Source of the DNA: Trueperaceae bacterium
Lineage (GTDB): Bacteria; Deinococcota; Deinococci; Deinococcales; Trueperaceae
Length of the DNA stretch: 64,000 nucleotides
Direction: 5' to 3'
Assembly: GCA_965213705.1 (NCBI GenBank)
Contig: OZ243913.1
Span: forward strand, 2,688,001-2,752,000
Each line of letters begins with the position of its first letter. Within the stretch, counting starts at the first letter, position 1. This document shows positions 15,521-58,850 of this stretch, one piece after another. Under the pieces are notes generated by a model, which worked only from the letters and a program-made list of their open reading frames with translations, made no database searches and was not told the origin of the DNA. Position numbers and translations under genes: made by a program.

Positions 15521-16747
15521 ATGAAAATTCACGAGTACCAGGCCAAACAACTCATGAAGGCGCGCGGCATCGCCGTTCCGAAGGGGCAGGTCGTCACCAC
15601 CGTCGACGAAGCGGTGGCGGCGGTGCGCCCGCTCGTTGAAGAAACGAACAACCCCGTCGTCGTGGTCAAGTCCCAAATCCACGCGGGCGGGCGCGGCAAG
15701 GGCCGCTTTAAGGAACACCCGGACTTGGGCGGCGTTACCGTCGTGACCGAAGGGTTGAAGGGCGGCGTCAAGGCGACCGAGGAGCGCGTGCGCGAACTTG
15801 CCAAAACCATGCTCGGCTCGACCCTGGTGACCGTTCAAACCGGCGACGAGGGCAAACAGGTCAACCGCCTCTACATCGAGCAGGGCATCGACATCGACCG
15901 CGAGATGTACGTGTCCGTCGTGCTCGACCGGGCGCAGGGCCGCAACGTAATGATGGTCTCGACCGAGGGCGGCGTGGAAATCGAAGAGGTCGCCGAGCAC
16001 AGTCCCGAGAAAATCCTGCGTGAGGCCATCGACCCAGGCGTCGGCCTGACGGACTTTCAGGCTCGAGCCCTCGCCTTTGGATTGGGCTTGGAGGGCCAAG
16101 CGTTCAAAAACGGCGTCAAGTTTATGAAAGCTCTCGCCCAGGCCGCCGTCGAACTCGATACCGACCTGGTCGAAATCAACCCGCTCGTGGTGACCAAGAG
16201 CGGCGAGGTGATGGCGCTCGACGGCAAGATGAGCCTCGACAACAACGCCCTCATGCGCCACAAGGACGTCGCCCAGATGCGCGACGAGTCCGAGGAAGAC
16301 CCCGCCGAGGTCGAAGCGGCCAAGTACGGCCTGAGTTTTATTAAATTGGACGGCAGCATCGGCTGCCTCGTGAACGGCGCAGGTTTGGCGATGGCGACGA
16401 TGGACACCATCAAACAGGTCGGCGGCGAGCCCGCCAACTTCTTAGACGTGGGCGGCGGCGCGACCACCGAAAACGTCACGGCGGCGTTTAAGATTATTAC
16501 CAGGGACGAAAACGTGCGCGGCATTTTCATCAACATTTTCGGCGGAATTATGCAGTGCGACACCATCGCCAACGGCGTGGTTGAGGCGGTCGGACAAGTC
16601 GGTTTGCAAGTTCCCCTCGTCGTGCGTCTGGAAGGCACCAACGTCGAACTGGGCCGCAAAATCATCGACGAAGCCGGCATCGACGGCGTGGTGAGCGCCG
16701 ACGACATGCTGAGCGGCGCGCAGAAAATCGTGGAGTTGGCCCAATGA
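15521..16747 (+). CDS. sucC: Succinyl-CoA ligase beta subunit
   Basis: 'MKIHEYQAK', 'HAGGRGKG', '[11 protein letters not shown]', 'NIFGGI'. Confidence 0.97.
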
Positions 16748-17682
16748 GCATCCTCGTAAACAAAGACACCAAAGTCATCGTGCAGGGTTTGGGCGAAGCG
16801 GGCACCTTTCACACCGACAAGGCCATCGCCTACGGCACGAACATGGTCGGCGCGGTGCGCCCCGGCAAGGGCGGGCAGAGCGTCCACTTCGAAGGCGAAA
16901 CCGACCACAGCGGCGTGCCCGGCCGCTCCGACACCTACAGCCTCGAGTTGCCGAGTTTCAACACGGTTAAAGACGCGATGGAGGCTACCGGCGCGAACGC
17001 CTCGGTCATCTACGTGCCGCCCGCCTTCGCCGCCGACGCCATCATGGAAGCGGCCGAGGCCGAAATACCGCTCATCATCACCATCACCGAGGGCATCCCG
17101 ATTATGGACATGGTGAAGGTCAAGGCGTACCTGCAAACGCGTTCGTCCCGCCTTATCGGCCCGAACTGCCCCGGCGTCATCACCCCTCACGAGTGCAAAA
17201 TCGGCATTATGCCCGGTTACATTCACAAAGGCGGCAAAATCGGCGTGGTGAGCCGTTCGGGCACGCTGACCTACGAGGCCGTGTTTCAACTTACCAACAA
17301 CGGCCTCGGCCAGACGACCGCGGTCGGAATAGGCGGCGACCCGGTGAACGGCACGAACTTTATCGACGTGCTCGAGCTGTTCAACGACGACCCCGAAACC
17401 GAGGGCGTGATTATGATAGGTGAAATCGGCGGCAGCGCCGAGGAAGAGGCCGCCGCCTGGATTGCAGCCAACATGACCAAGCCCGTCGCCGCCTTTATCG
17501 CCGGGACGACCGCGCCCCCCGGCAAGCGCATGGGCCACGCGGGCGCGATTATCTCGGGCGGCAAAGGCACCGCCGAAGACAAAATTGCCGCGTTGAAAGA
17601 CGCAAATGTGGTTGTCGCGCCGACGCCGACGGATATGGGTGGGGCAATGGTGGAGGCGATGGAAAAAGCAGGCGTAGCCTGA
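16744..17682 (+). CDS. sucD: Succinyl-CoA ligase alpha subunit
   Basis: 'IGPNCPG', 'SRSGTLTYE', 'MGHAGA'. Confidence 0.97.
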
Positions 17683-17689
17683 TGGGAGA

Positions 17690-17728
17690 GTGCGGCATAA
17701 CCCCATTTCTGAGTTTGTTATGCCGCAC
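17690..17728 (+). terminator. Hairpin after sucD at the left edge of the low-GC island
   Basis: GTGCGGCATAAC...GTTATGCCGCAC 12-bp stem. Confidence 0.55.
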
Positions 17729-18299
17729 TATGCTTGCTTGAAAATCAGTAACTCTTGTTGTATCGAGGTTGGTACTGTGGAAATTAAAGTAGACGAAGTT
17801 ATCAGTTGGATAACAGAAATACTGAGGGCTGAAGTCACAAAGGAGGATGAGACATTTATTTTTACAGTCGAGCGTCGAGGTGAAAAAACAATCGAAGTCC
17901 TAGTGAGTGATAAAGAATTGTCTGAAAAAGTGGAAGCTGTAAACTCAAAAAAGGAAATTGATGAAACTGTACTTTTTGATACCAACAATTACGAAGTTTT
18001 AGTAAAAAACCATTCCTTTAGGTCACCATTCTTTCGTCGTGAAGGCATAAATCAAGAAGATAGTGTAAACAACATCAAGTATCATTTATCTGACGCTAGT
18101 GAAGAATACTTAATTTTTTTCCTTTATAAAGTTGCACAGCTTTTACCCGTTGGTAGAAGTTTACGTACTGTGCGAATACCATTTCAACGTCCAATAGAAC
18201 GGCCTAAAGAAGAACTTTCGATTTTTGAGGTTTTGAGATTCTATTTACCGAGAGTAGAAACTTTACTTGTCAAATCAAATCGCAGGTAGTGGCCCACCA

Positions 18300-18780
18300 T
18301 CAACTGACAGCAGCACGCTCAAGATTGTAGCGGACCAAGAACAGATGCAAGCAAATGAGGTGCATGTGTTCGGACTTGGAGAAGGATAAGGTCTTTCTGA
18401 CAAAGCGCGCTAGGCGTTGGCGGATAGTATTGTTAAAGCGCTCGACGTGTGCTGTAAGCCCTGAGTCTTTACCAACAGCTTGATGCTGTTCATCGGGAAC
18501 GACGGCCTGATAAGCTTCCCAGAAGTCACTAAACACCGTGCCTTGTTTATAAGCATCTGGGATGTTACGCCAAAGTTTTTGACAAGTAGCAATGCCACGT
18601 CCACCTACAACACAAGCGACCACCTGGCGTGTCTGCTTACAAAGCGCTATCCAGGCCCACCGTTTGTTACGTCTACATCGAACAAATGACCACATCTCGT
18701 CGAGTTCGAGTTGCACCGCTTCAGGGTTCTCGGGCGTAACCAGTGTGGCGCTAAGCGGCGGTGTCGTCGCGGCTTTTTTT
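18300..18780 (-). CDS. insB: IS1 InsB DDE transposase domain, expressed by -1 frameshift
   Basis: 'ELDEMWSFV', 'SDFWEAY', 'HVERFNNTIRQRLARFVRKTLSFSK'. Confidence 0.9.
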
Positions 18781-19029
18781 GAGCCATTTCGCTATTGTGG
18801 TGCGGGACACGCCGAATGTTCTGGTCAGCCCACGCATACTAGAGCGCTCCTGATACGACTTCAGTATCTCATCTTTCTTCGCTTCGCTGTACCCTTTAGT
18901 GCTCGCGTTCTCGCGACTGGACTTGCCGCACGCTCGACACAGGTACTTTTGCTTGCCGTTTGGTGCATGACCGTTCTTGACAAGCTCTTCGCTCTCGCAG
19001 TGGCAGCAACGTACAACTTTGGTGACCAT
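18751..19029 (-). CDS. insA: IS1 InsA (zinc ribbon plus HTH)
   Basis: 'CCHCES...KNG...GKQKYLCRACG' and HTH; A7G slippery site at 18773-18780. Confidence 0.9.
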   Translation of the reverse strand: MVTKVVRCCHCESEELVKNGHAPNGKQKYLCRACGKSSRENASTKGYSEAKKDEILKSYQERSSMRGLTRTFGVSRTTIAKWLKKSRDDTAA

Positions 19030-19521
19030 TCCTTAGCTTATCAGTCTTTGCTAAACCACTACCCAAATCGCAGTAGAGTAGAAAGTGAATTTAGAAGTTA
19101 CGCTAACAGTTTTCTTTTTCAGCTTTCATACAATTTGGACATTGCCGTCGTACAACAGAGATTTATTGAGGAGATAGTTCGCTCTAACAGAATATCTCGT
19201 AACAGACGGACAAACGTTGCTGAACTAGAGGCACCTAGGCGTCGTTACATTGCCGATTTAGTTTACCACTATCAAATGGGAGTAGCGTCCGATAATCCCT
19301 CGCTAGAGTATTTGTCCTATTATCATGTTTCGGAACATTTTTTTGAATCTATATTCAACGATGATTTGCTAGAAGAAGTAAAGGATATGATTACCCACCC
19401 AGATTTCTCATATCAACGCAAAGGTGACCTTAGAAAACTGGTGCGTGACGTTACTAAACGAGTTCAACTTAGAAACGAGACTATAGTTTTTAATGAAGTT
19501 GAAGCTCTAAAGCTGACACTA

Positions 19522-20375
19522 GAGCGTGTTATGAACTAGCCGGAAGAGTTAAAAAAGGGGCTAAGCGTTTAAGCATGAGCATAGAGAAAGCTAAGAAATG
19601 CAGCCCAGCAAGGGTTTCAGGCAGTCGTTCATAGTCACGGGCTAAGCGCCTGAGTCGGGATGTCCAGGCAAAGGAACGCTCTACGACCCAGCGTCTGGGT
19701 AGCAAAACGAAGCCTTTCTTAGCTTCTTCGTGTTTAACAACGAAGAGCCGAATGCCTTGGCTTTTAGCCGCCTCGGCTGCGTCGTCACCTGTGTAGCCCT
19801 GGTCTACAAACGCAACCTCGACGGATTCTCCAGTTATGGTTTGAACTTGCTCGGCAAGCGCTTCAACCTGATGGCGTTCTTGTTCGTTTGCAGGTGTAAC
19901 GACAAGGGCTAAGAGTAGACCCAAGGTATCGACTGCCAGATGGACTTTAGAGCCTTTCTTACGCTTGTGTCCGTCATAGCCCGCACGTTCGCCACTCTCA
20001 GGCGTACTTTGTAAGGTGCGTCCATCAAACACCGTCGCTGTTGGGTTTTCTCCTCGTCCTTTCAGCCGTCTCAGCAGGCTTCGTAGGTCGTGGGTCATCT
20101 CCTCGAACACGCCTGCTTTTAACCACCTTTGGCTTTGCTGATATACCGCTTCCCAAGGTGGGAAGTCACCAGGTAAATAGCGCCAAGGTGAGCCTGAGCG
20201 AACCATCCATCTCAAAGCATCAAACACCTCTCGTAGGTCATAACTTCGTTGTGGGGCGTCTTCTCTGATTAAGCTCAAGTACGGTGCTACAAAAGCCCAT
20301 TCTTCATCGCCGACATCACTCGGATAACCTTTCCTTGTCATTCTTTAGTTTAGCGATTGAGTTCATAACACCCTC
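19522..20375 (-). mobile_element. IS5-family insertion sequence, about 854 bp
   Basis: 16-bp IRs GAGCGTGTTATGAACT / AGTTCATAACACCCTC (one mismatch), flanked by TA duplication. Confidence 0.92.
19529..20341 (-). CDS. IS5-family transposase
   Basis: '[10 protein letters not shown]', '[21 protein letters not shown]', '[10 protein letters not shown]...RLARDYE'. Confidence 0.95.
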
Positions 20376-20786
20376 TAAACAAATATGTTGACATAGATGA
20401 ACTACGAACAAAGTTAAATGAGTATGATGACTCTTTAGTTTCTTATTATGGCAGCAGTCCAGTTGGCTTCTCAGAAGGTCCGTTAGTCAACTTGAACGAC
20501 AGTGACCATCAGCGTGTAGTAAGTTCTATAGCCTCTAGAATTTACAAAACCAGAAACGCAATAGTTCATAGCAAAGATGGAGAGAAGGTCAGATATATAC
20601 CTTTTCAACATGATCGTGTCTTGGTTAAAGAGGTTCCCTTGATACGCTTTACTGCAGAACTGATCATTGTCAAAACATCTCGTGTCTTTGGTGGTCCAAC
20701 AGCACTATAGAAAGAATAAAGTGAGTGCAAAAATATCAAGACACACCTTGTAAGAAACGCAGTCCGATACCCTCATGGAACCTCGG

Positions 20787-20828
20787 GCCACACAGCCCCT
20801 TTTTCAGTCCTAAGGCTCGGCTCGAGCC
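20787..20828 (+). repeat. TA-cassette repeat copy 1
   Basis: GCCACACAGCCCCTTTTTCAGTCCTAAGGCTCGGCTCGAGCC. Confidence 0.8.
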
Positions 20829-20885
20829 TGAACCGTCAAACCTCTCCATCACACCTAACAAACGAGCAGTCGCTATACTTTCGGT

Positions 20886-21140
20886 ATGACTGAACAAGGC
20901 ATCCTCGAGATACCTTCAGAAAGCCTGTTGAGCCTCAAACTCATGCCCGACGAGATGGCGCAAGAACTGCGCTTGGCTGCGGCTATGAAGCTGTACGAGT
21001 TGGGTAGATTGTCCACGGGAGCGGCGGCCACACTAGCAGGTATTCCCAAACCTCTGTTCTTGACAAAGTTAGCAGACTACGGCATCGACAGTTTCGACCT
21101 GACGGCTGACAGCTTCGGGCTCGAGACGCGGCTTGCCTAA
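20886..21140 (+). CDS. UPF0175-family antitoxin-like protein
   Basis: 'ELRLAAAMKLYELGRLSTGAAATLAGIPKPLFLTKLADYGI'; TATACT just upstream of the ATG. Confidence 0.8.
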   Translation: MTEQGILEIPSESLLSLKLMPDEMAQELRLAAAMKLYELGRLSTGAAATLAGIPKPLFLTKLADYGIDSFDLTADSFGLETRLA

Positions 21141-21230
21141 GTTTGTTTGCAACACCTCGCCTTTGATGCTTCATTTAGCTGGAGAAGCAAAATGGTTTTT
21201 TGGTTCGTCAGGTTTCAAAGAGTGAACTAT
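21133..21230 (+). pseudogene. Truncated DUF3368-like PIN toxin N-terminus
   Basis: Overlapping start gives 'MPKFVCNTSPL', resembling DUF3368 N-termini; the frame then degenerates. Confidence 0.5.
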
Positions 21231-21240
21231 GAAAGCTCAA

Positions 21241-21281
21241 GCCCCTAACCTCTTTTTCAGCCCCAAGGCTTGGCTCGAGCC
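21241..21281 (+). repeat. TA-cassette repeat copy 2
   Basis: GCCCCTAACCTCTTTTTCAGCCCCAAGGCTTGGCTCGAGCC. Confidence 0.85.
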
Positions 21282-21694
21282 TACGCAAACCAGTTTTCCA
21301 CCTCTAACCCCTCAAAAGGTTCAAAGTCTCGGACATTACGCGTGACCAGACTTAGGCCGTTGGTTGCGGCGATGGCGGCGATTTGGCCGTCAACAAAACT
21401 TACCGGCTGCCCGAGGCGCTCGAGTCTGGTGCGCTCCTTAGCCTGCCACCTCGCAGCTTTGTCGTCATAGGCCAGCTTGGGGAAACTCGGGTCGACGCTG
21501 TCAAAAAGGTAGCGCTCCAACGTTCTCTTCTTTTTGCCCTCGTCCATGCGGTAAAAACCGTAAAGAAGTTCGTGCCAGACAGGTGTAGCAATGGCGCACT
21601 CTCTTTCAAACGTCCGGAGTTTATTCTGCACGGCTTCGTTCGGTTGCGGACGCACAAGTTCAGAGAGAACATTGGTGTCTAATAAGTAGGTCAA
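21281..21694 (-). CDS. vapC: VapC PIN-domain toxin
   Basis: 'YLLDTNVLSE', 'DGQIAAIA', 'LVTRNVRDF'. Confidence 0.92.
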   Translation of the reverse strand: MTYLLDTNVLSELVRPQPNEAVQNKLRTFERECAIATPVWHELLYGFYRMDEGKKKRTLERYLFDSVDPSFPKLAYDDKAARWQAKERTRLERLGQPVSFVDGQIAAIAATNGLSLVTRNVRDFEPFEGLEVENWFA

Positions 21695-21957
21695 AAGACA
21701 ACCACTCGACCCGTGCCTTCGTCCCGCAGATGGTCGAAATCGTCTTCTTCCAAAGGCATAAAGTCGGCAGACTCTCGCAAAGCGCGTACTTTGTGCGTGA
21801 AGCCGGGGCGCACAGCCGTGAGGTTTTCATAATCGTCTGCAGCGATAAGCACCGCCACCCTTTTCCCGTGGCGTGTAACCTCGATGGTGTTTCCCTTTTC
21901 GACCTCACGAAGTGCTTGGGTCAAACGGGCTTTCAACTCGGAAACAGCGTATTTCAT
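21691..21957 (-). CDS. Phd/YefM-family antitoxin
   Basis: 'VSELKARLTQALREVEKG..IEVTRHGKRVAVL'; overlaps the vapC start. Confidence 0.9.
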   Translation of the reverse strand: MKYAVSELKARLTQALREVEKGNTIEVTRHGKRVAVLIAADDYENLTAVRPGFTHKVRALRESADFMPLEEDDFDHLRDEGTGRVVVF

Positions 21958-22022
21958 GCTTTAGAGTAGCACAATTATGGTCATTTTTCTAGCTTTGTGA
22001 CTATTTTTGAAAAAGGGCTCGA

Positions 22023-22063
22023 GCCCCCCAGCCTCTTTTTCAGCCCAAATCTCGGCTCGAGCC
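22023..22063 (+). repeat. TA-cassette repeat copy 3
   Basis: GCCCCCCAGCCTCTTTTTCAGCCCAAATCTCGGCTCGAGCC. Confidence 0.85.
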
Positions 22064-22088
22064 CATTCTCGAGCGTGCCAAACTCACC

Positions 22089-22272
22089 ATGAACACATCC
22101 AACTCCGTAGAATTCCTCAACTTTCTAAAGCGCAGCGGCGAAAACTGCTCGCGCAACAAGCCGAAGAGGTTGCTCACTTGTACCAACCTGGTAGCGAACT
22201 GCTCGAGTGGACAGAGAACTACGCGGAGGGTGCGCCGAGGCATGACCCCCTCACCCAAACGAGGGAATAGAC
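22089..22272 (+). pseudogene. Frameshifted antitoxin-like gene plus truncated MazF/PemK-like start
   Basis: MNTSNSVEFL then a one-base shift into LSKAQRRKLLAQQAEEVAHLYQ; overlapping 'MTPSPKRG' is cut off at GCTCGAGC. Confidence 0.5.
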
Positions 22273-22280
22273 GCTCGAGC

Positions 22281-22541
22281 CTACTTAGAAACCAGCGGGT
22301 ACTTTTCCGGCTCGAGAATCATCGCCAAGTTCAGGTCAATATCCAAGTCGGGCCAGTAAAGGTGTTCGGGCGCTTCTTCAACGACGTTCAAAATCTCTTT
22401 GACCTTTGCCTCTTTGAACCAAGGGAAATGTTCGTAGGGTAAAAAATACTCCTGAGCGTTCCAGTCAAGCCACACGCCGTGCTGACTAATATCAAGGATT
22501 TCCAAAGTGTTTTTCCCAAGCGTCGCGGATGACATGTTCAT
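22281..22541 (-). CDS. DUF2442-like antitoxin
   Basis: 'FLPYEHFPWFKEA', 'HLYWPDLDIDL'. Confidence 0.82.
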   Translation of the reverse strand: MNMSSATLGKNTLEILDISQHGVWLDWNAQEYFLPYEHFPWFKEAKVKEILNVVEEAPEHLYWPDLDIDLNLAMILEPEKYPLVSK

Positions 22542-22734
22542 TCCTCCTCACCAGCTCTTGAAGCTCGTTGAGTTGCTTTTTGTTAAGTCCTGTGTAATTC
22601 GCCAAGGCCACGGTCGGCTCGAGCCAAAATTTAGCCTCTCCTTCAGGACTGCGGACGTGAACGTGCAGTCGCGCTTCTTCGCGAAAAAAGAAGAAAAAGC
22701 GGTAGGGACCATGTCGCAAAACGGTGGGGCTCAC
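22492..22734 (-). CDS. DUF4160-like toxin (HicA-like fold)
   Basis: 'PTVLRHGPYRFFFF', 'HVHV', 'EAKFWL', 'AWEKHFG'. Confidence 0.85.
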   Translation of the reverse strand: MSPTVLRHGPYRFFFFFREEARLHVHVRSPEGEAKFWLEPTVALANYTGLNKKQLNELQELVRRNEHVIRDAWEKHFGNP

Positions 22735-22790
22735 GTGAGGCTAGTTTACTACACGTTTTCAGCGGCTGAGGGTCGGTACGGAGGGCTTGC

Positions 22791-22830
22791 GCCCCCAGCC
22801 TCTTTCTCAGCCTCAAGCGCGGCTCGAGCC
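22791..22830 (+). repeat. TA-cassette repeat copy 4
   Basis: GCCCCCAGCCTCTTTCTCAGCCTCAAGCGCGGCTCGAGCC. Confidence 0.85.
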
Positions 22831-22857
22831 CAACCCAGAGCGTGCTAAACTCACACC

Positions 22858-23076
22858 ATGCTCGAGTGGTCAAGCTGCCCCGCCGTCGAACGCAACCCAG
22901 ATAAACTGAGTGGCGCTTGGGTGTTCAAGGGCTCGCGCGTACCGGTCAAAGCTTTGTTCGAAAATCTCGAGGACGGCGCGAGCGTAGAAGATTTTTTGAC
23001 GTGGTTTCCCGGTGTGAGCAAAGCTCAAATAGACGCCGTTCTAGAACATGCCAGCCACAGCCTAGAAGCAGCTTAA
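22858..23076 (+). CDS. DUF433-family antitoxin
   Basis: 'VERNPDKLSGAWVFKGSRVPV..LFENLEDGAS..FL..FPGVS'. Confidence 0.88.
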   Translation: MLEWSSCPAVERNPDKLSGAWVFKGSRVPVKALFENLEDGASVEDFLTWFPGVSKAQIDAVLEHASHSLEAA

Positions 23077-23079
23077 AGG

Positions 23080-23190
23080 ATGAAGTTTTGTTCGACCAGG
23101 GTATGCCTTTACAAAAGCGCTTGCTTCGAGGTTTCTACGGCGTTTGAATTGGGTTGGAACGAACTGAGAAACGGCGAACCTACCGGAGCG
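23080..23190 (+). pseudogene. Degraded DUF5615-like PIN toxin
   Basis: Fragments 'VLFDQG' and 'EVSTAFELGWNELRNGE' in different frames directly after DUF433. Confidence 0.55.
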
Positions 23191-23412
23191 GCTGAGTGCT
23201 ATAAGAGCACAGCCCCGACGTTGACGTTTGGCGAAGCTGGAACACGTTATCGGTTTTCGCATAAGATAGTCCGGTATGCAGCGGTAACGCCCTGGTACAA
23301 GTCGCATGGCTTCTTCAAGAACCAGGCGCTGTTCTAAACTATCTTCCACGACACTTTACGCCGGCACGCTTTTCCTTGCCCACCCAAGTTGCACCTGCAG
23401 GTCCGGGAACCG

Positions 23413-23456: not shown

Positions 23457-23547
23457 GGAGGGTTGGCAGAGCGGTTGAACGCGGCGGTCTTGAAAACCGT
23501 TATAGGGTTTCGCCCTATCGGGGGTTCGAATCCCTCACCCTCCGCCA
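23457..23547 (+). tRNA. tRNA-Ser(TGA)
   Basis: Cloverleaf with long variable arm, anticodon TGA, GGTTCGAATCC, CCA end. Confidence 0.95.
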
Positions 23548-23606
23548 TCCTGTACAAAAGCGTAGCGGCTACGGGGTCGGAAGGTTTCTGCAAGGCTGTT
23601 TACGTT

Positions 23607-23699
23607 GGAGGGGTGGCCGAGCGGCTGAAGGCGCTCCCCTGCTAAGGGAGTATAGGGCCAAAAGCTCTATCGAGGGTTCGAATCCCTCCTCCTCCGCCA
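23607..23699 (+). tRNA. tRNA-Ser(GCT)
   Basis: Cloverleaf, anticodon GCT, long variable arm, CCA end. Confidence 0.95.
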
Positions 23700-23787
23700 C
23701 ATTACCGGCAGCATCAACGTCGTGTTTGCTGATACCGTTGGTAATATTGAGCTTTGCTTATAGGAAAAGAGGCAACACCCGGTACAC

Positions 23788-23864
<77 letters not shown>

Positions 23865-56300: not shown

Positions 56301-57059
56301 GATACCTCAAACTACACAATTCCGCTGCTCAACGAACAAGACTTATCATTACTCAAAAAGGTCTACGCAAATTCAAAACGTATTTCAGACATCGGGCATT
56401 GCTACACAGGAGAAATAGATATGACTTTGGGTCGTCCGTATATCACAGATGATCCTAACAAAGCCGTAATGATTAAAGGTGCAATTCTGGACCGATACCT
56501 GTTGCGAACTAAAATGAGCCAAGGCGAAATAGAATTTTTGGATTCAAAAAAGTACGTTGAAGAAAACAGCGGAAGCAAATCCTCACACTATAAGCAGCCA
56601 AGAATTGTCATGCAGGGAATCACTGGTGTGAACGAAAAAACTCGTCTGAAAATGACTTACATTGATTCTGGAGTGTTCTGTGCAAACTCTGTCAACTACA
56701 TTGTTTTTGACAAGCCTTCGGTAAGTCCCAAATATGTCTTGGGCTTTTTGAATAGCAACCTATTGAACTTTGTTTTCTCAAAAAGTAGTACCAACAGCAA
56801 CGTCAACGGCTATGAGGTTGACAACTTACCCTTCACCGACAAGTATCCCGCCGACCAAACCGCCCACGACTGCATGACCCAAATGGTCGACGCCATGCTG
56901 GACTTGCACAAACAAAAGACCGCAGCTTCCGGCGACGCGCTCGCCGCTTTGGAAACCCGCATCACCGAGCTGGACGCTTCAATCGACACGCTCGTTTATG
57001 CGCTTTACGGGCTGAGCGAGGAAGAGGTTGAGATTGTAGAGGCGGCGGTGGCGGGGTGA
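53343..57059 (+). CDS. Type IIG restriction-modification enzyme (fused REase-MTase-TRD, Eco57I/TaqI-like)
   Basis: N-terminal D...ETK nuclease, 'PYLNSSLF', 'DPAVGSGHFL' motif I, 'GNPPY' motif IV, C-terminal 'IDTLVYALYGLSEEE'. Confidence 0.9.
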   Translation: MTFLPVQPQNALNKAFRKVKPNRADFETFKTQLENLTNSVKPHESEEFHKNLITAFLKKTYYDGHFINTKDRNDLVIHEGVTADTPVGVILETKKPGNKSEMPSPTDLNRKALHELVLYYLRERVTNKNLNLKHLVVTDTYQWFVFDASTFEKTFVENRAFVKTYEDFAAGRLTGTKTEFFYNNITKPFIAQLDAPLPFTFVDLRDYWSNLTDSDLTGEDAEKRLITLYKLFSPEHLLKLPFANDSNTLDKAFYAELLHIVGLTEKKVGGKKLIVRQEEPDDASLIENAMIQLENLDKLSRLEQPAHYGDSRETRLFNVALELAITWVNRVLFLKLLESQLLSYHKNQKNVRDDYAFLNSNRLKDYDELNTLFFGVLAKPVNERHASVAAFRNVPYLNSSLFEPTELEHRTLAVSALRDDRELELYPGTVLKDADGKKRSGRMTTLAYLFAFLDAFDFSSEGSEAVQEDGKRLINASVLGLIFEKINGYKDGSFFTPGFITMYMCRETIRSAVVQKFNSDKGWDCQTITELYNKIDDKQDANRIVDSLKICDPAVGSGHFLVSALNEIVALKSELKILMDDEGKVLRGYTLEVSNDELVITDDNGELFEYKPQNAESQRVQKTLFHEKQTLIENCLFGVDINPNSVKICRLRLWIELLKNAYYKPDGALETLPNIDINIKTGNSLISRYALDVDLKQALKKSGLSVEAYRNAVSTYRNAESKDVKRKMEMLISEIKRAFRTEIMFNDRKLLRLNKLKADLSVEQEDLFADEAIRQQRAKQREKDLKELAKLEQEVADIQNNKVFENAFEWRFEFPEVLNDNGDFVGFDVIIGNPPYGLLNKRQNKTTSIDIASDELDFYKNLEEYAPAKGNILNVFRLFVVRSVSILRAHGFFSQIFPLAFAADLTSSKLREHLLQNTQFIKLEAFPERDDVNNRVFEAVKMSVCILNLTKRQPNSDPFLLRIHQSNFVDDKSPQTYISRDDIQLLDTSNYTIPLLNEQDLSLLKKVYANSKRISDIGHCYTGEIDMTLGRPYITDDPNKAVMIKGAILDRYLLRTKMSQGEIEFLDSKKYVEENSGSKSSHYKQPRIVMQGITGVNEKTRLKMTYIDSGVFCANSVNYIVFDKPSVSPKYVLGFLNSNLLNFVFSKSSTNSNVNGYEVDNLPFTDKYPADQTAHDCMTQMVDAMLDLHKQKTAASGDALAALETRITELDASIDTLVYALYGLSEEEVEIVEAAVAG

Positions 57060-57304
57060 TTTATGACGTTGGCTTTAAGCCTCGAGCCCGCAAAGACCTG
57101 CAAGCGATTGATAAACGTGAAGCCGGGCGTATCATCGAAAAGATTGAGGCGATGCGCGAGGATTTGACAGGCGACGTAAAGAAGCTGACCGATTTCACGC
57201 CGGATTATCGCCTGCGTGTTGATAACTACCGGGTTTTGTTCGCACTCGAGGATAATAGGATTGTCATCTACCGCGTTCGTCACCGCAAAGACGTTTATAA
57301 ATGA
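57056..57304 (+). CDS. RelE/ParE-family toxin
   Basis: 'ARKDL', 'DVKKL', 'YRLRVDNYRVLF', 'HRKDVY'. Confidence 0.9.
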   Translation: MIYDVGFKPRARKDLQAIDKREAGRIIEKIEAMREDLTGDVKKLTDFTPDYRLRVDNYRVLFALEDNRIVIYRVRHRKDVYK

Positions 57305-57318
57305 GAAAGGATTGCCCC

Positions 57319-57630
57319 GTGGCTGATTTGGCGTTACATCCAGAGTTTTTGGTTAAAAACGGCAAAAGAGAATTTGTCGTGCTGCCTTATGAAGAGTTTG
57401 AGGCGTTGCAAGAGGTTCTTGCCGACGCTTCCGACCTCATCGACTTACGCGACGCCAAAGAGACCGAAGGGGACGCTCCTACTGTGTCATTGGAAGAAGT
57501 CAAGAGGCAGTTGGGTTTGTCTGCTCTGGACTTGGCCGAAGACCTGGTGGGCAGTGTAGAGGACGGAACGAGTGACCTAGCGACGAACCCTGAACACCTG
57601 AATGGTTACGGCAAAGAAGAAACAGTATGA
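57319..57630 (+). CDS. Antitoxin downstream of RelE
   Basis: 'GKREFVVLPYEEFE.LQE.L.D..DL..LR.AK...VSLEEVK'. Confidence 0.75.
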   Translation: MADLALHPEFLVKNGKREFVVLPYEEFEALQEVLADASDLIDLRDAKETEGDAPTVSLEEVKRQLGLSALDLAEDLVGSVEDGTSDLATNPEHLNGYGKEETV

Positions 57631-57848
57631 ATCAACTCAAGGTGATTGTCGAAAAGCACGAGGACGGCTACGTCGCTTACCCGCTCGGGCTCAAAGGTGT
57701 TGTCGTGGGTCAGGGTGACAGCTACGAAGAAGTCATGGCGGATGTGAAGTCGGCGATTGCGTTTCATCTCGAGACGTTTGGTAGCGACATGCTCGAGGAC
57801 TCGCCGGTGTTGGAAGCATTTGTCGCCGAGACGGTGGCGGGCGTGTAG
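57627..57848 (+). CDS. HicB-family antitoxin
   Basis: 'VIVEKHEDGYVAY', 'GQGDSYEE'. Confidence 0.85.
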   Translation: MNQLKVIVEKHEDGYVAYPLGLKGVVVGQGDSYEEVMADVKSAIAFHLETFGSDMLEDSPVLEAFVAETVAGV

Positions 57849-58094
57849 GTGAAAGGGTTGACGCACCCAAAGCGAAGGTCGTGAAGGCGTTACAGCTTCT
57901 TGGCTTTGAGATGGTCCGCGAACGGGAGCATATAGGGGGGGCACACAGCCATGATTCGGCACAATGCGGACGGAACCAAAACACCTCTTACCCTGCCTAA
58001 CCACAAAACTATCAAAGGCTCGACGCTGAGAACGATTTGTACACAAGCAGGTATCGCTCGAGGGGACTTTCTAAAAGCTTATGAGCAAACGTGA
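57849..58094 (+). pseudogene. HicA-family toxin, frameshifted
   Basis: 'VVKALQLLGFEMVREREHI' and 'LTLPNHKTIKGSTLRTICTQAGI' are in different frames around the G-run at 57934-57941. Confidence 0.7.
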
Positions 58095-58160
58095 GGCAAT
58101 TGACGCAGTCACGACGCGAACCGAAGAGGTGATGGCGGTGCTCGAGGCGATGGTGGCGGG

Positions 58161-58406
58161 GTGACTTACAAGCTTGACCTAACCAAGCGTGCCGACAAAG
58201 ACTTGCAAAAATTGCCCGTGGGGGTTCAGGAACGTGTCGCCAAGGGGCTGAGGTTGCTACGAAACGATTTGCAGGGCGACGTGAAGAGGCTGACGAACTT
58301 CACTCCTGAGTACCGCTTGCGCGTGGGAAACTACCGAGTTTTGTTTGAAATTGAGGATAATACAGTGGTAATTCAACGCATCCTGCACCGTAAAGATGCC
58401 TATTAA
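58161..58406 (+). CDS. RelE/ParE-family toxin (second copy)
   Basis: 'ADKDLQKL', 'DVKRL', 'YRLRVGNYRVLF', 'HRKDAY'. Confidence 0.9.
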   Translation: MTYKLDLTKRADKDLQKLPVGVQERVAKGLRLLRNDLQGDVKRLTNFTPEYRLRVGNYRVLFEIEDNTVVIQRILHRKDAY

Positions 58407-58415
58407 GGAGTAATA

Positions 58416-58625
58416 ATGGACGTTTTGGAACTGCACCCCTCATTTATTGAGCGAGAGGGTAAAAAAGAGTATGCGGTCCTGCCGATAGACGAGTTTGAAC
58501 GGCTACAAACCTTTATTGAGGACGCTCGAGACTTGTTCTTGCTTAGACAGGCAAAGGCTGAGGACGACGGTGAAAGAATCTCTTTGGCTGAGGTAGAAGC
58601 GCGTTTAGGACTGACCTCTGACTGA
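58416..58625 (+). CDS. Antitoxin (paralogue of 57319-57630)
   Basis: 'LHP.F..REGKKEYAVLP..EFE.LQ..IEDA.DL..LRQAK'. Confidence 0.75.
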   Translation: MDVLELHPSFIEREGKKEYAVLPIDEFERLQTFIEDARDLFLLRQAKAEDDGERISLAEVEARLGLTSD

Positions 58626-58695
58626 CTGGAGTTTGTGACGCACTTTTCTGTAACTTTGCGGGCGTAGTGCAGAGGTCAAAGTTGTGAAGAACATC

Positions 58696-58850
58696 ATGAA
58701 ACGTCTCAAAGTGATTGTCGAAAAGCGCGAGAACGGCTACGTCGCTTACCCGCTCGCACGCTCCTCAAAATTGCCGCCAAACACCCTGAACTGGTGCTCG
58801 AGGTCAGCAAACAACCCGAAAGAAGCGCGTTTCACCGTCAAACTTTTGAG
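58696..58850 (+). pseudogene. Chimeric remnant: HicB N-terminus joined to an XRE/HigA-like C-terminus
   Basis: First ~60 nt nearly identical to the start of hicB at 57627; then 'TLLKIAAKHPELVLEV' in another frame. Confidence 0.55.

Follow-up and report, generated by a model that had tools for sequence, protein, structure and literature searches.

A shuffled toxin-antitoxin array with joints at CTCGAG palindromes after sucD in Trueperaceae

Introduction

Toxin-antitoxin (TA) pairs of unrelated families that lie in a row between copies of one direct repeat raise the question of how such a row is assembled. This question is posed by a locus downstream of sucD in the genome of a Trueperaceae bacterium (G000, 4.25 Mb; GenBank assembly GCA_965213705.1), which we analyzed within a stretch of 64,000 nt, here called the window (contig OZ243913.1, positions 2,688,001 to 2,752,000). 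A preliminary description had suggested an integron-like platform for cassette capture or shuffling that uses a recombination site other than attC. Our analysis revealed a real, shuffled TA array that acts as a slow cassette array and is not an integron, i.e., a TA island with a resolvable assembly rule. TA islands, in which closely spaced pairs of different classes, including DUF433-PIN and COG2886(UPF0175)-PIN, lie together, were described by Makarova et al. 2009 (PMC2701414), whose sections on such islands hold that tandem duplication cannot explain them and suggest preferred integration regions or cassette transfer.

Results

The window harbors five TA pairs in a row (A to E; Table 1), three of them with broken toxins, and thus several adjoining pairs from different families, as in a TA island. 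Pfam confirmed UPF0175, PIN, Phd, DUF2442, DUF4160, and DUF433, and the DUF3368, MazF, and DUF5615 remnants match intact genes in relatives. The families named in the preliminary description are therefore confirmed, but not its count of one pair in each of four intervals, since the third interval carries two. Only Phd/VapC (pair B) and DUF4160/DUF2442 (pair D) are intact; against the genes of relatives, the toxins of pairs A, C, and E show deletions or frameshifts, e.g., about 426 bp of the DUF3368 gene are gone at position 21165 in comparison with genome G001.

The four direct repeats of the same orientation proved to be 47-nt units starting at 20782, 21235, 22017, and 22785 (spacing 453, 782, and 768 bp) and edged by two CTCGAG palindromes. 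A search of the whole genome with a four-copy profile resulted in matches to these four at E<1e-9, followed by a next match at E=0.39. Since the whole unit occurs as four copies at one locus, a dispersed repeat of the REP/MITE type, which the preliminary description had itself named as a possible objection, was ruled out. The terminal GGCTCGAGCC, taken before as a mark of the repeat, lost its specificity: with 475 copies it is the commonest decamer of G000, GCTCGAGC is the commonest octamer, and CTCGAG, with 8,868 copies, is the second commonest hexamer and a highly iterated palindrome, lying far over expectation genome-wide. In stretches from relatives CTCGAG reaches 3.5–9.3 times its expectation, and GGCTCGAGCC is abundant in many Deinococcales lineages, though not in all. 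The extra c. 30 bp noted in copies 3 and 4 are real and represent the leader of pair C, which continues into DUF433 through a joint at the ATG|CTCGAG of the latter. Between pairs C and D, a bare right half-site, GCTCGAGCC, is likely the remnant of a deletion, and the stop codon of the VapC/PIN toxin of pair B overlaps a repeat end. A scan against Rfam resulted in tRNAs and chance matches only, and a terminator scan found no terminators. Separately, a dispersed MITE/REP-like family of c. 125 bp, unrelated to the array repeat, was seen at L017 5710-5845 and about 25 places in G000.

A repeat model built on the copies of G000, G001, and G004 revealed strong matches (E<1e-10) in four of 128 family genomes, comprising 16 copies, all directly after sucD, of which only the four in G062 are independent of the model; G032 displayed only a weak match (E 4.7e-5). 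G000 belongs to the same family, Trueperaceae, as G004 and G062. The order after sucD is A-B-C-D-E in the window, (X leader)-A-B-C-D' followed by purS in G001, D-E-C-X-B followed by purS in G004, and X-F-E-D' in G062, where X stands for an AbrB/MazE-like antitoxin paired with a PIN toxin and F for a further PIN pair; a small contig of G001 carries a shortened repeat and pair E. Because order and content differ in the four genomes and between-genome alignments of the array break at the repeats, the cassette-like shuffling of the preliminary description is supported, and this part of its integron-like platform stands, while the dedicated recombination site is not supported. Two tandem copies of a single ancestral order are enough to derive all four arrangements, so that unequal crossover from repeat to repeat suffices. 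The identity between G000 and G004 is 80% in sucCD and 75–84% in the TA pairs, which argues for an old array. Contigs of lower-identity relatives in two runs of one sample showed further variant joints at or near repeats. Three genomes of genus g24 revealed TA clusters after sucD with homologs of pair E (and of pair D in G073) that lack this repeat, and seven other relatives examined had no post-sucD TA cluster. The tRNA-Ser, which had served to name the locus, is an incidental neighbor, as the array of relatives lies between sucD and purS or another gene. Tandem islands targeted to tRNAs were likewise rejected, since the repeat is unrelated to tRNAs and the arrays of relatives lie far from the tRNA cluster. 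With respect to G001, two sucCD regions were seen, C6 (L017) and C7 (L016), and a 20.8-kb contig is c. 96% identical to the window compared with 89% for the chromosome and may be DNA of a second strain. The names sucCD, purS, livF, and polA used here are those we presume from recognizing the translations, not from library matches.

The repeat itself points to a gene. Together with its left flank it aligns with the first 54 nt of the gene for antitoxin X, with local scores of 23–52 in 17 copies, 16 of which exceed their own shuffle maximum; 205 genomic segments with two CTCGAG 34–46 nt apart scored 20.7±3.5 (maximum 35). Copy 2 of the window can still be read in a single frame resembling X, with a local score of 52 and, at 43% identity, an E of 0.22 on its own. 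Seven other X homologs at 61–74% identity retain the same N-terminus, and therefore the X gene is taken as ancestral to the repeat. Thus, the 47-bp separator likely stems from the start of an antitoxin gene that was excised between two CTCGAG and has since decayed. Within genus g4, the cores of the repeat resemble each other more (0.84) than they do across genera (0.72).

Unrelated repeats of their own, mostly traceable to ends of TA genes and ending at CTCGAG, mark at least three more TA arrays of these genomes along with two from another family. In array 2, after livF, the TA pairs are separated by a repeat of 75 bp with GGCTCGAGCC at its end (six copies in G062, three in G004) that corresponds to the 5' end of a gene intact in G073, and G001 and G000 retain relics there (G000 C1:1096635-1098100, L122 4635-6100). 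A scan of the G000 genome revealed 33 low-GC local repeat clusters, including two further TA arrays (Table 1), one of which has a changed order in G001 (L143), while the other, after polA, has a second repeat resembling a MazF 3' end. In arrays 3 and 4 of G000, the antitoxin whose promoter and start form part of the repeat has survived intact. Array 3 differs in both order and location in G001; it retains remnants of duplicated pairs and contains two antitoxins with a common 5' part up to an internal CTCGAG, i.e., a chimeric antitoxin. Pairs also change places between arrays: pair A lies in array 1 in G000 and G001 and in array 2 in G004, and the F antitoxin in array 1 in G062 and in array 2 in G001 and G000. 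Among eight outgroup stretches, two revealed clear palindrome-bounded TA repeats and six few or unclear ones. In G052, from another family, an inserted PIN pair is flanked by two copies of a segment of c. 140 bp that covers the promoter and start of an antitoxin and runs from CTCGAG to CTCGAG; in a second array, a repeat led by CTCGAG occurs in seven copies between TA pairs. A tandem 24-bp unit with one CTCGAG each was also seen in G052 (L211 18-196).

A recent joint of this kind was found in G062, where pair F is flanked by a 115-bp duplication (114 of 115 positions identical) that runs from CTCGAG to CTC(A/G)AG within the first codons of DUF433. In 18 array stretches, 116 of 192 ends of duplicated segments lay at most 6 nt from CTCGAG (32 expected), and the observed number exceeded expectation in all 14 stretches with duplicates. 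For control repeats, taken from 23 of the 33 G000 clusters after four TA clusters and six with a best repeat below 30 bp (three of which contain the palindrome) had been left out, the corresponding number was seven of 98 (7.5 expected). Ends of alignments between different arrays fell at CTCGAG in 34 of 132 cases (null 11.4, maximum 23).

As stated before, the window has no tyrosine or serine recombinase gene, and transposases of IS1 and IS5 sit just upstream of the array. A recombinase that co-occurs with the repeat was found neither among IntI nor among resolvases or tyrosine recombinases. IntI over the cut-off was detected in seven of 121 family genomes (G033 included) and in none of the four carriers (G000, G001, G004, and G062), and resolvases in two of five genomes, with none in G004, G062, and G073. 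In G000, G001, and G004, the tyrosine recombinases are encoded at a great distance from the sucD arrays, and no ortholog of more than 38% identity common to the three was found. A search of five genomes for the XhoI family, run without a positive control, gave no match. An IS200 tnpA beside the G001 array was dismissed, since it is one IS among many and does not accompany the other arrays. Because the repeat is homologous to the 5' end of an antitoxin gene, because each array has a repeat of its own, and because no recombinase co-occurs, a dedicated recombination site is less likely; what the arrays have in common is the genome-wide CTCGAG palindrome. In all five genomes we identified ComEC and a conserved Eco57I-type methyltransferase of c. 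560 aa (G000 C1:1137004 in L175; L172, L173, L165, L170), which is a candidate for CTCGAG methylation. In supplement S3 of PMC4752239, m6A at cTcgAg is recorded for Marinithermus and for two species of Meiothermus, and Truepera has no row there. Full IntI-family integrases were also noted in some Trueperaceae, e.g., G026 (C1:597310, L098) and G090 (L099); a crude attC scan gave no sites near these two loci, which were its intended positive controls, and is therefore uninformative.

Table 1. Coordinates of the array, its neighbors, and further TA arrays of the same genome (window positions unless a contig or locus is given)
Feature	Position	Strand	Remark
sucC-sucD	15521..17682	+	conserved left anchor of the array in relatives
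Low-GC gene, weakly ApeA/HEPN-like	17690..20710	+	HEPN_Apea E 0.028; DzbB E 7e-5
Repeat copy 1 with decayed ATG-led left flank	20775..20828	+	
Pair A	20886..21200	+	intact UPF0175 antitoxin 20886-21140; DUF3368 toxin remnant
Repeat copy 2	21229..21281	+	single reading frame resembling the start of AbrB/MazE-like antitoxin X
Pair B, intact	21281..21957	-	Phd antitoxin 21691-21957; VapC/PIN toxin 21281-21694
Repeat copy 3	22017..22063	+	exact CTCGAG on either end
Pair C	22068..22270	+	leader, frameshifted antitoxin from 22089, 9-codon MazF stub; intact in G004
Bare right half-site at C/D joint	22273..22281	+	
Pair D, intact	22281..22734	-	DUF4160 22492-22734; DUF2442 22281-22541
Repeat copy 4	22785..22830	+	
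Copy of pair C leader joined to DUF433	22838..22866	+	joint at ATG|CTCGAG
Pair E	22858..23196	+	intact DUF433 22858-23076; DUF5615 toxin remnant frameshifted, truncated
tRNA-Ser, tRNA-Ser, tRNA-Arg	23457..23864	+	array-adjacent in G000 only
TA array, G000	C1:683100-687600 (L123 3100-7600)		c. seven TA pairs; spacers are mosaics of CTCGAG-bounded bricks
TA array after polA, G000	C1:3620300-3624200 (L124 2300-6200)		founder antitoxin preserved intact; its promoter and start recur as copies
Post-sucD slot genes	window 17690-20710; L016 7876-8727; L019 11939-14050; L084 10428-10931		

With regard to the surroundings, the low-GC gene between sucD and the array is interrupted by IS1 (about 18285-19067) and IS5 (about 19520-20372), and the slot after sucD holds a different low-GC gene per genome (HEPN-like, DUF3644/PDC-S19, DUF6756, and others), often hit by an IS. 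A second TA cluster of the window (57056-58760) comprises ParE/Phd, a HicB-like pair, and ParE/Phd; it follows a large gene of the Eco57I type, and a HicB-like 5' end occurs in duplicate directly before a tRNA-Arg. Two CRISPR-like arrays were seen in G000 at C1:2187380 and about 4138500-4140000, with repeats of 29–30 and 36–37 bp.

Discussion

Variable order and content, homology of the repeat to X, repeats specific to each array, and duplications from CTCGAG to CTCGAG were observed. We think it rather probable that new TA pairs enter at CTCGAG joints, that the palindrome-bounded segment is duplicated, and that host recombination between the resulting scars shuffles and deletes units. A TA pair of foreign origin, which probably arrived through DNA uptake, would join by microhomology at a CTCGAG near the start of the resident antitoxin. 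The segment from palindrome to palindrome would then be copied either when a palindrome-closed circle reinserts at homologous sequence or when copies of the chromosome cross over unequally, two routes that are indistinguishable here. Host recombination between scars would later duplicate, delete, reorder, and homogenize units, and TA addiction would retain a new unit until its toxin decays, as it has in three of five pairs in the window. A dedicated integrase would not be required. Deinococcota are known for polyploidy and natural transformation.

Several observations weigh against this model. The joint counts (116 of 192 and 34 of 132) are pairwise and not independent, the arrays were picked after the pattern had been noticed, and most ends of between-array alignments (132 less 34) lie away from CTCGAG. 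Outside arrays, CTCGAG marked two of the 32 ends of clean indels (background 4.6%) and 11 of the 188 ends of alignments (null 7.6), so that both counts are at background and the palindrome is no general breakpoint hotspot there; this comparison covered about 0.4 Mb of the 4.4 Mb of G001, and several of its indels resemble IS insertions, which makes it a weak test for the capture of foreign genes. In the window, the DUF3368 and DUF5615 breaks are not at CTCGAG, and neither are most left edges of the array-2 repeat. The inner core of the repeat is only 43–60% identical to X in the multiple alignment and its central ten bases differ, for which reason the source may be a paralog of X. Copies of genus g1 are no closer to each other (0.73) than to those of g4 (0.72), the post-sucD TA clusters of the three g24 genomes carry few or no repeats, and palindrome-rich genomes, e.g., G035, lack this array. 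Neither an excised circle nor an excision joint of the own strain was seen in the contigs, which cannot show circles.

If the palindromes were instead the target of a dedicated, unlinked enzyme of the host or a mobile element that acts on (probably methylated) CTCGAG by cutting or recombination and actively relocates TA cassettes, the array would be an integrase-free counterpart of an integron. The restriction of joint enrichment to TA arrays, the precision of the palindrome-to-palindrome duplications, the methyltransferase conserved in all five genomes, the cTcgAg methylation listed for Marinithermus and Meiothermus, and the site-specific recombination at cyanobacterial HIP1 reported second-hand in PMC4390886 would all fit. 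Such an enzyme is nevertheless unlikely in our view, as no tyrosine recombinase common to G000, G001, and G004 and no resolvase in G004, G062, and G073 was found, the XhoI search of five genomes, limited as stated above, was negative, and a cassette divergence close to that of sucCD suggests slow turnover. Alternatively, the repeats may be passive debris of tandem duplication and decay, with CTCGAG left at the edges by conservation or by faster regeneration than in other intergenic DNA. A single duplication followed by losses accounts for all orders, array 3 holds relics of duplicated pairs, and arrays are richer in CTCGAG (2.8–6.7 per kb) than low-GC windows in general (1.5 per kb). However, the 99% identical duplication in G062 is too recent for decay and yet stops at both palindromes, the chimeric antitoxin of array 3 switches at an internal CTCGAG, the control repeats are not enriched in CTCGAG ends, and unrelated pairs cannot come in by duplication alone, which renders this explanation improbable.

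Least of all do we expect the repeat to have degenerated from attC and the array to be an orphan cluster of integron cassettes (CALIN) after loss of IntI, which is very improbable. TA pairs do occur in both orientations, IntI is present in some genomes of the family, and some copies form a long imperfect hairpin from the two palindromes (z about -4.7 for two of 12); most copies, with z near 0 in some, fold no better than shuffles. As the preliminary description had stated, the repeat is not an attC site: AAC/GTT boxes are in place in none of 17 copies, and one RYYYAAC match lies outside copy 4. Moreover, 47 bp falls below the attC range of 57–141 bp quoted in PMC5371416, the repeat derives from a protein-coding start, and no carrier has IntI over the cut-off. 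A non-canonical attC with AAG/CTT boxes was dropped as well, since the repeat aligns to an antitoxin start and spacing and folding are inconsistent with it. Both ends of pair F in G062 (L084 8760-8790 and 9470-9500) resemble canonical attC halves by eye, a hint of a former integron cassette.

Compared with known systems, the array resembles integrons and CALINs as outlined in PMC4889954 and PMC5371416 in that direct repeats separate its gene units, their order varies, TA genes are carried as cargo, and, as in CALINs, a nearby integrase is lacking, but differs from them in a short, array-specific repeat of coding origin without attC boxes and in carrier genomes that have no IntI over the cut-off. 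With the TA islands treated in PMC2701414 it shares neighboring pairs of different classes; here, the joints are resolved as locus-specific repeats from TA gene ends, bounded by a genome-wide palindrome and reordered between genomes. The hyper-abundant palindrome recalls cyanobacterial HIP1 (GCGATCGC), for which PMC4390886, PMC13756078, and 10.1101/2024.09.10.611283 describe that DNA between two sites is excised, that a repeat inserts precisely into a site, and that transformation gains in a methylation-dependent manner. In contrast, the core is CTCGAG here, the phylum is another, and whole TA operons are jointed into arrays. Host recombination at repeats that yields tandem duplications without a dedicated recombinase is also a feature of transformation-triggered unequal crossing-over in Streptococcus pneumoniae, whose repeats, as given in PMC3784515, are IS remnants and whose duplications span 100–900 kb, unlike the scars of 47–150 bp and units below 1 kb of our arrays. 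No paper on the CTCGAG palindrome in Trueperaceae or on palindrome-jointed TA arrays was found in the literature, where thin coverage of subscription journals leaves absence unproven.

PMC2701414 leaves unanswered how unrelated pairs come together in TA islands, and the function of highly iterated palindromes is treated as debated in PMC4390886 and PMC13756078. The arrays described here link the two questions via base-precise joints in natural genomes and make them testable in transformable Deinococcota. They also show that an array looking like an integron with a new site can arise from gene scars, which calls for caution with other non-attC arrays. A more far-reaching view, conceivable though doubtful, is that palindrome-rich Deinococcota run a cassette system without an integrase: crossover would take place at methylated CTCGAG, a putative host activity would capture and shuffle TA operons there, and the repeat of each array would be bred from the end of its founder antitoxin. 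If true, this would assign a gene-capture function to highly iterated palindromes outside cyanobacteria and would show the de novo origin of a cassette boundary.

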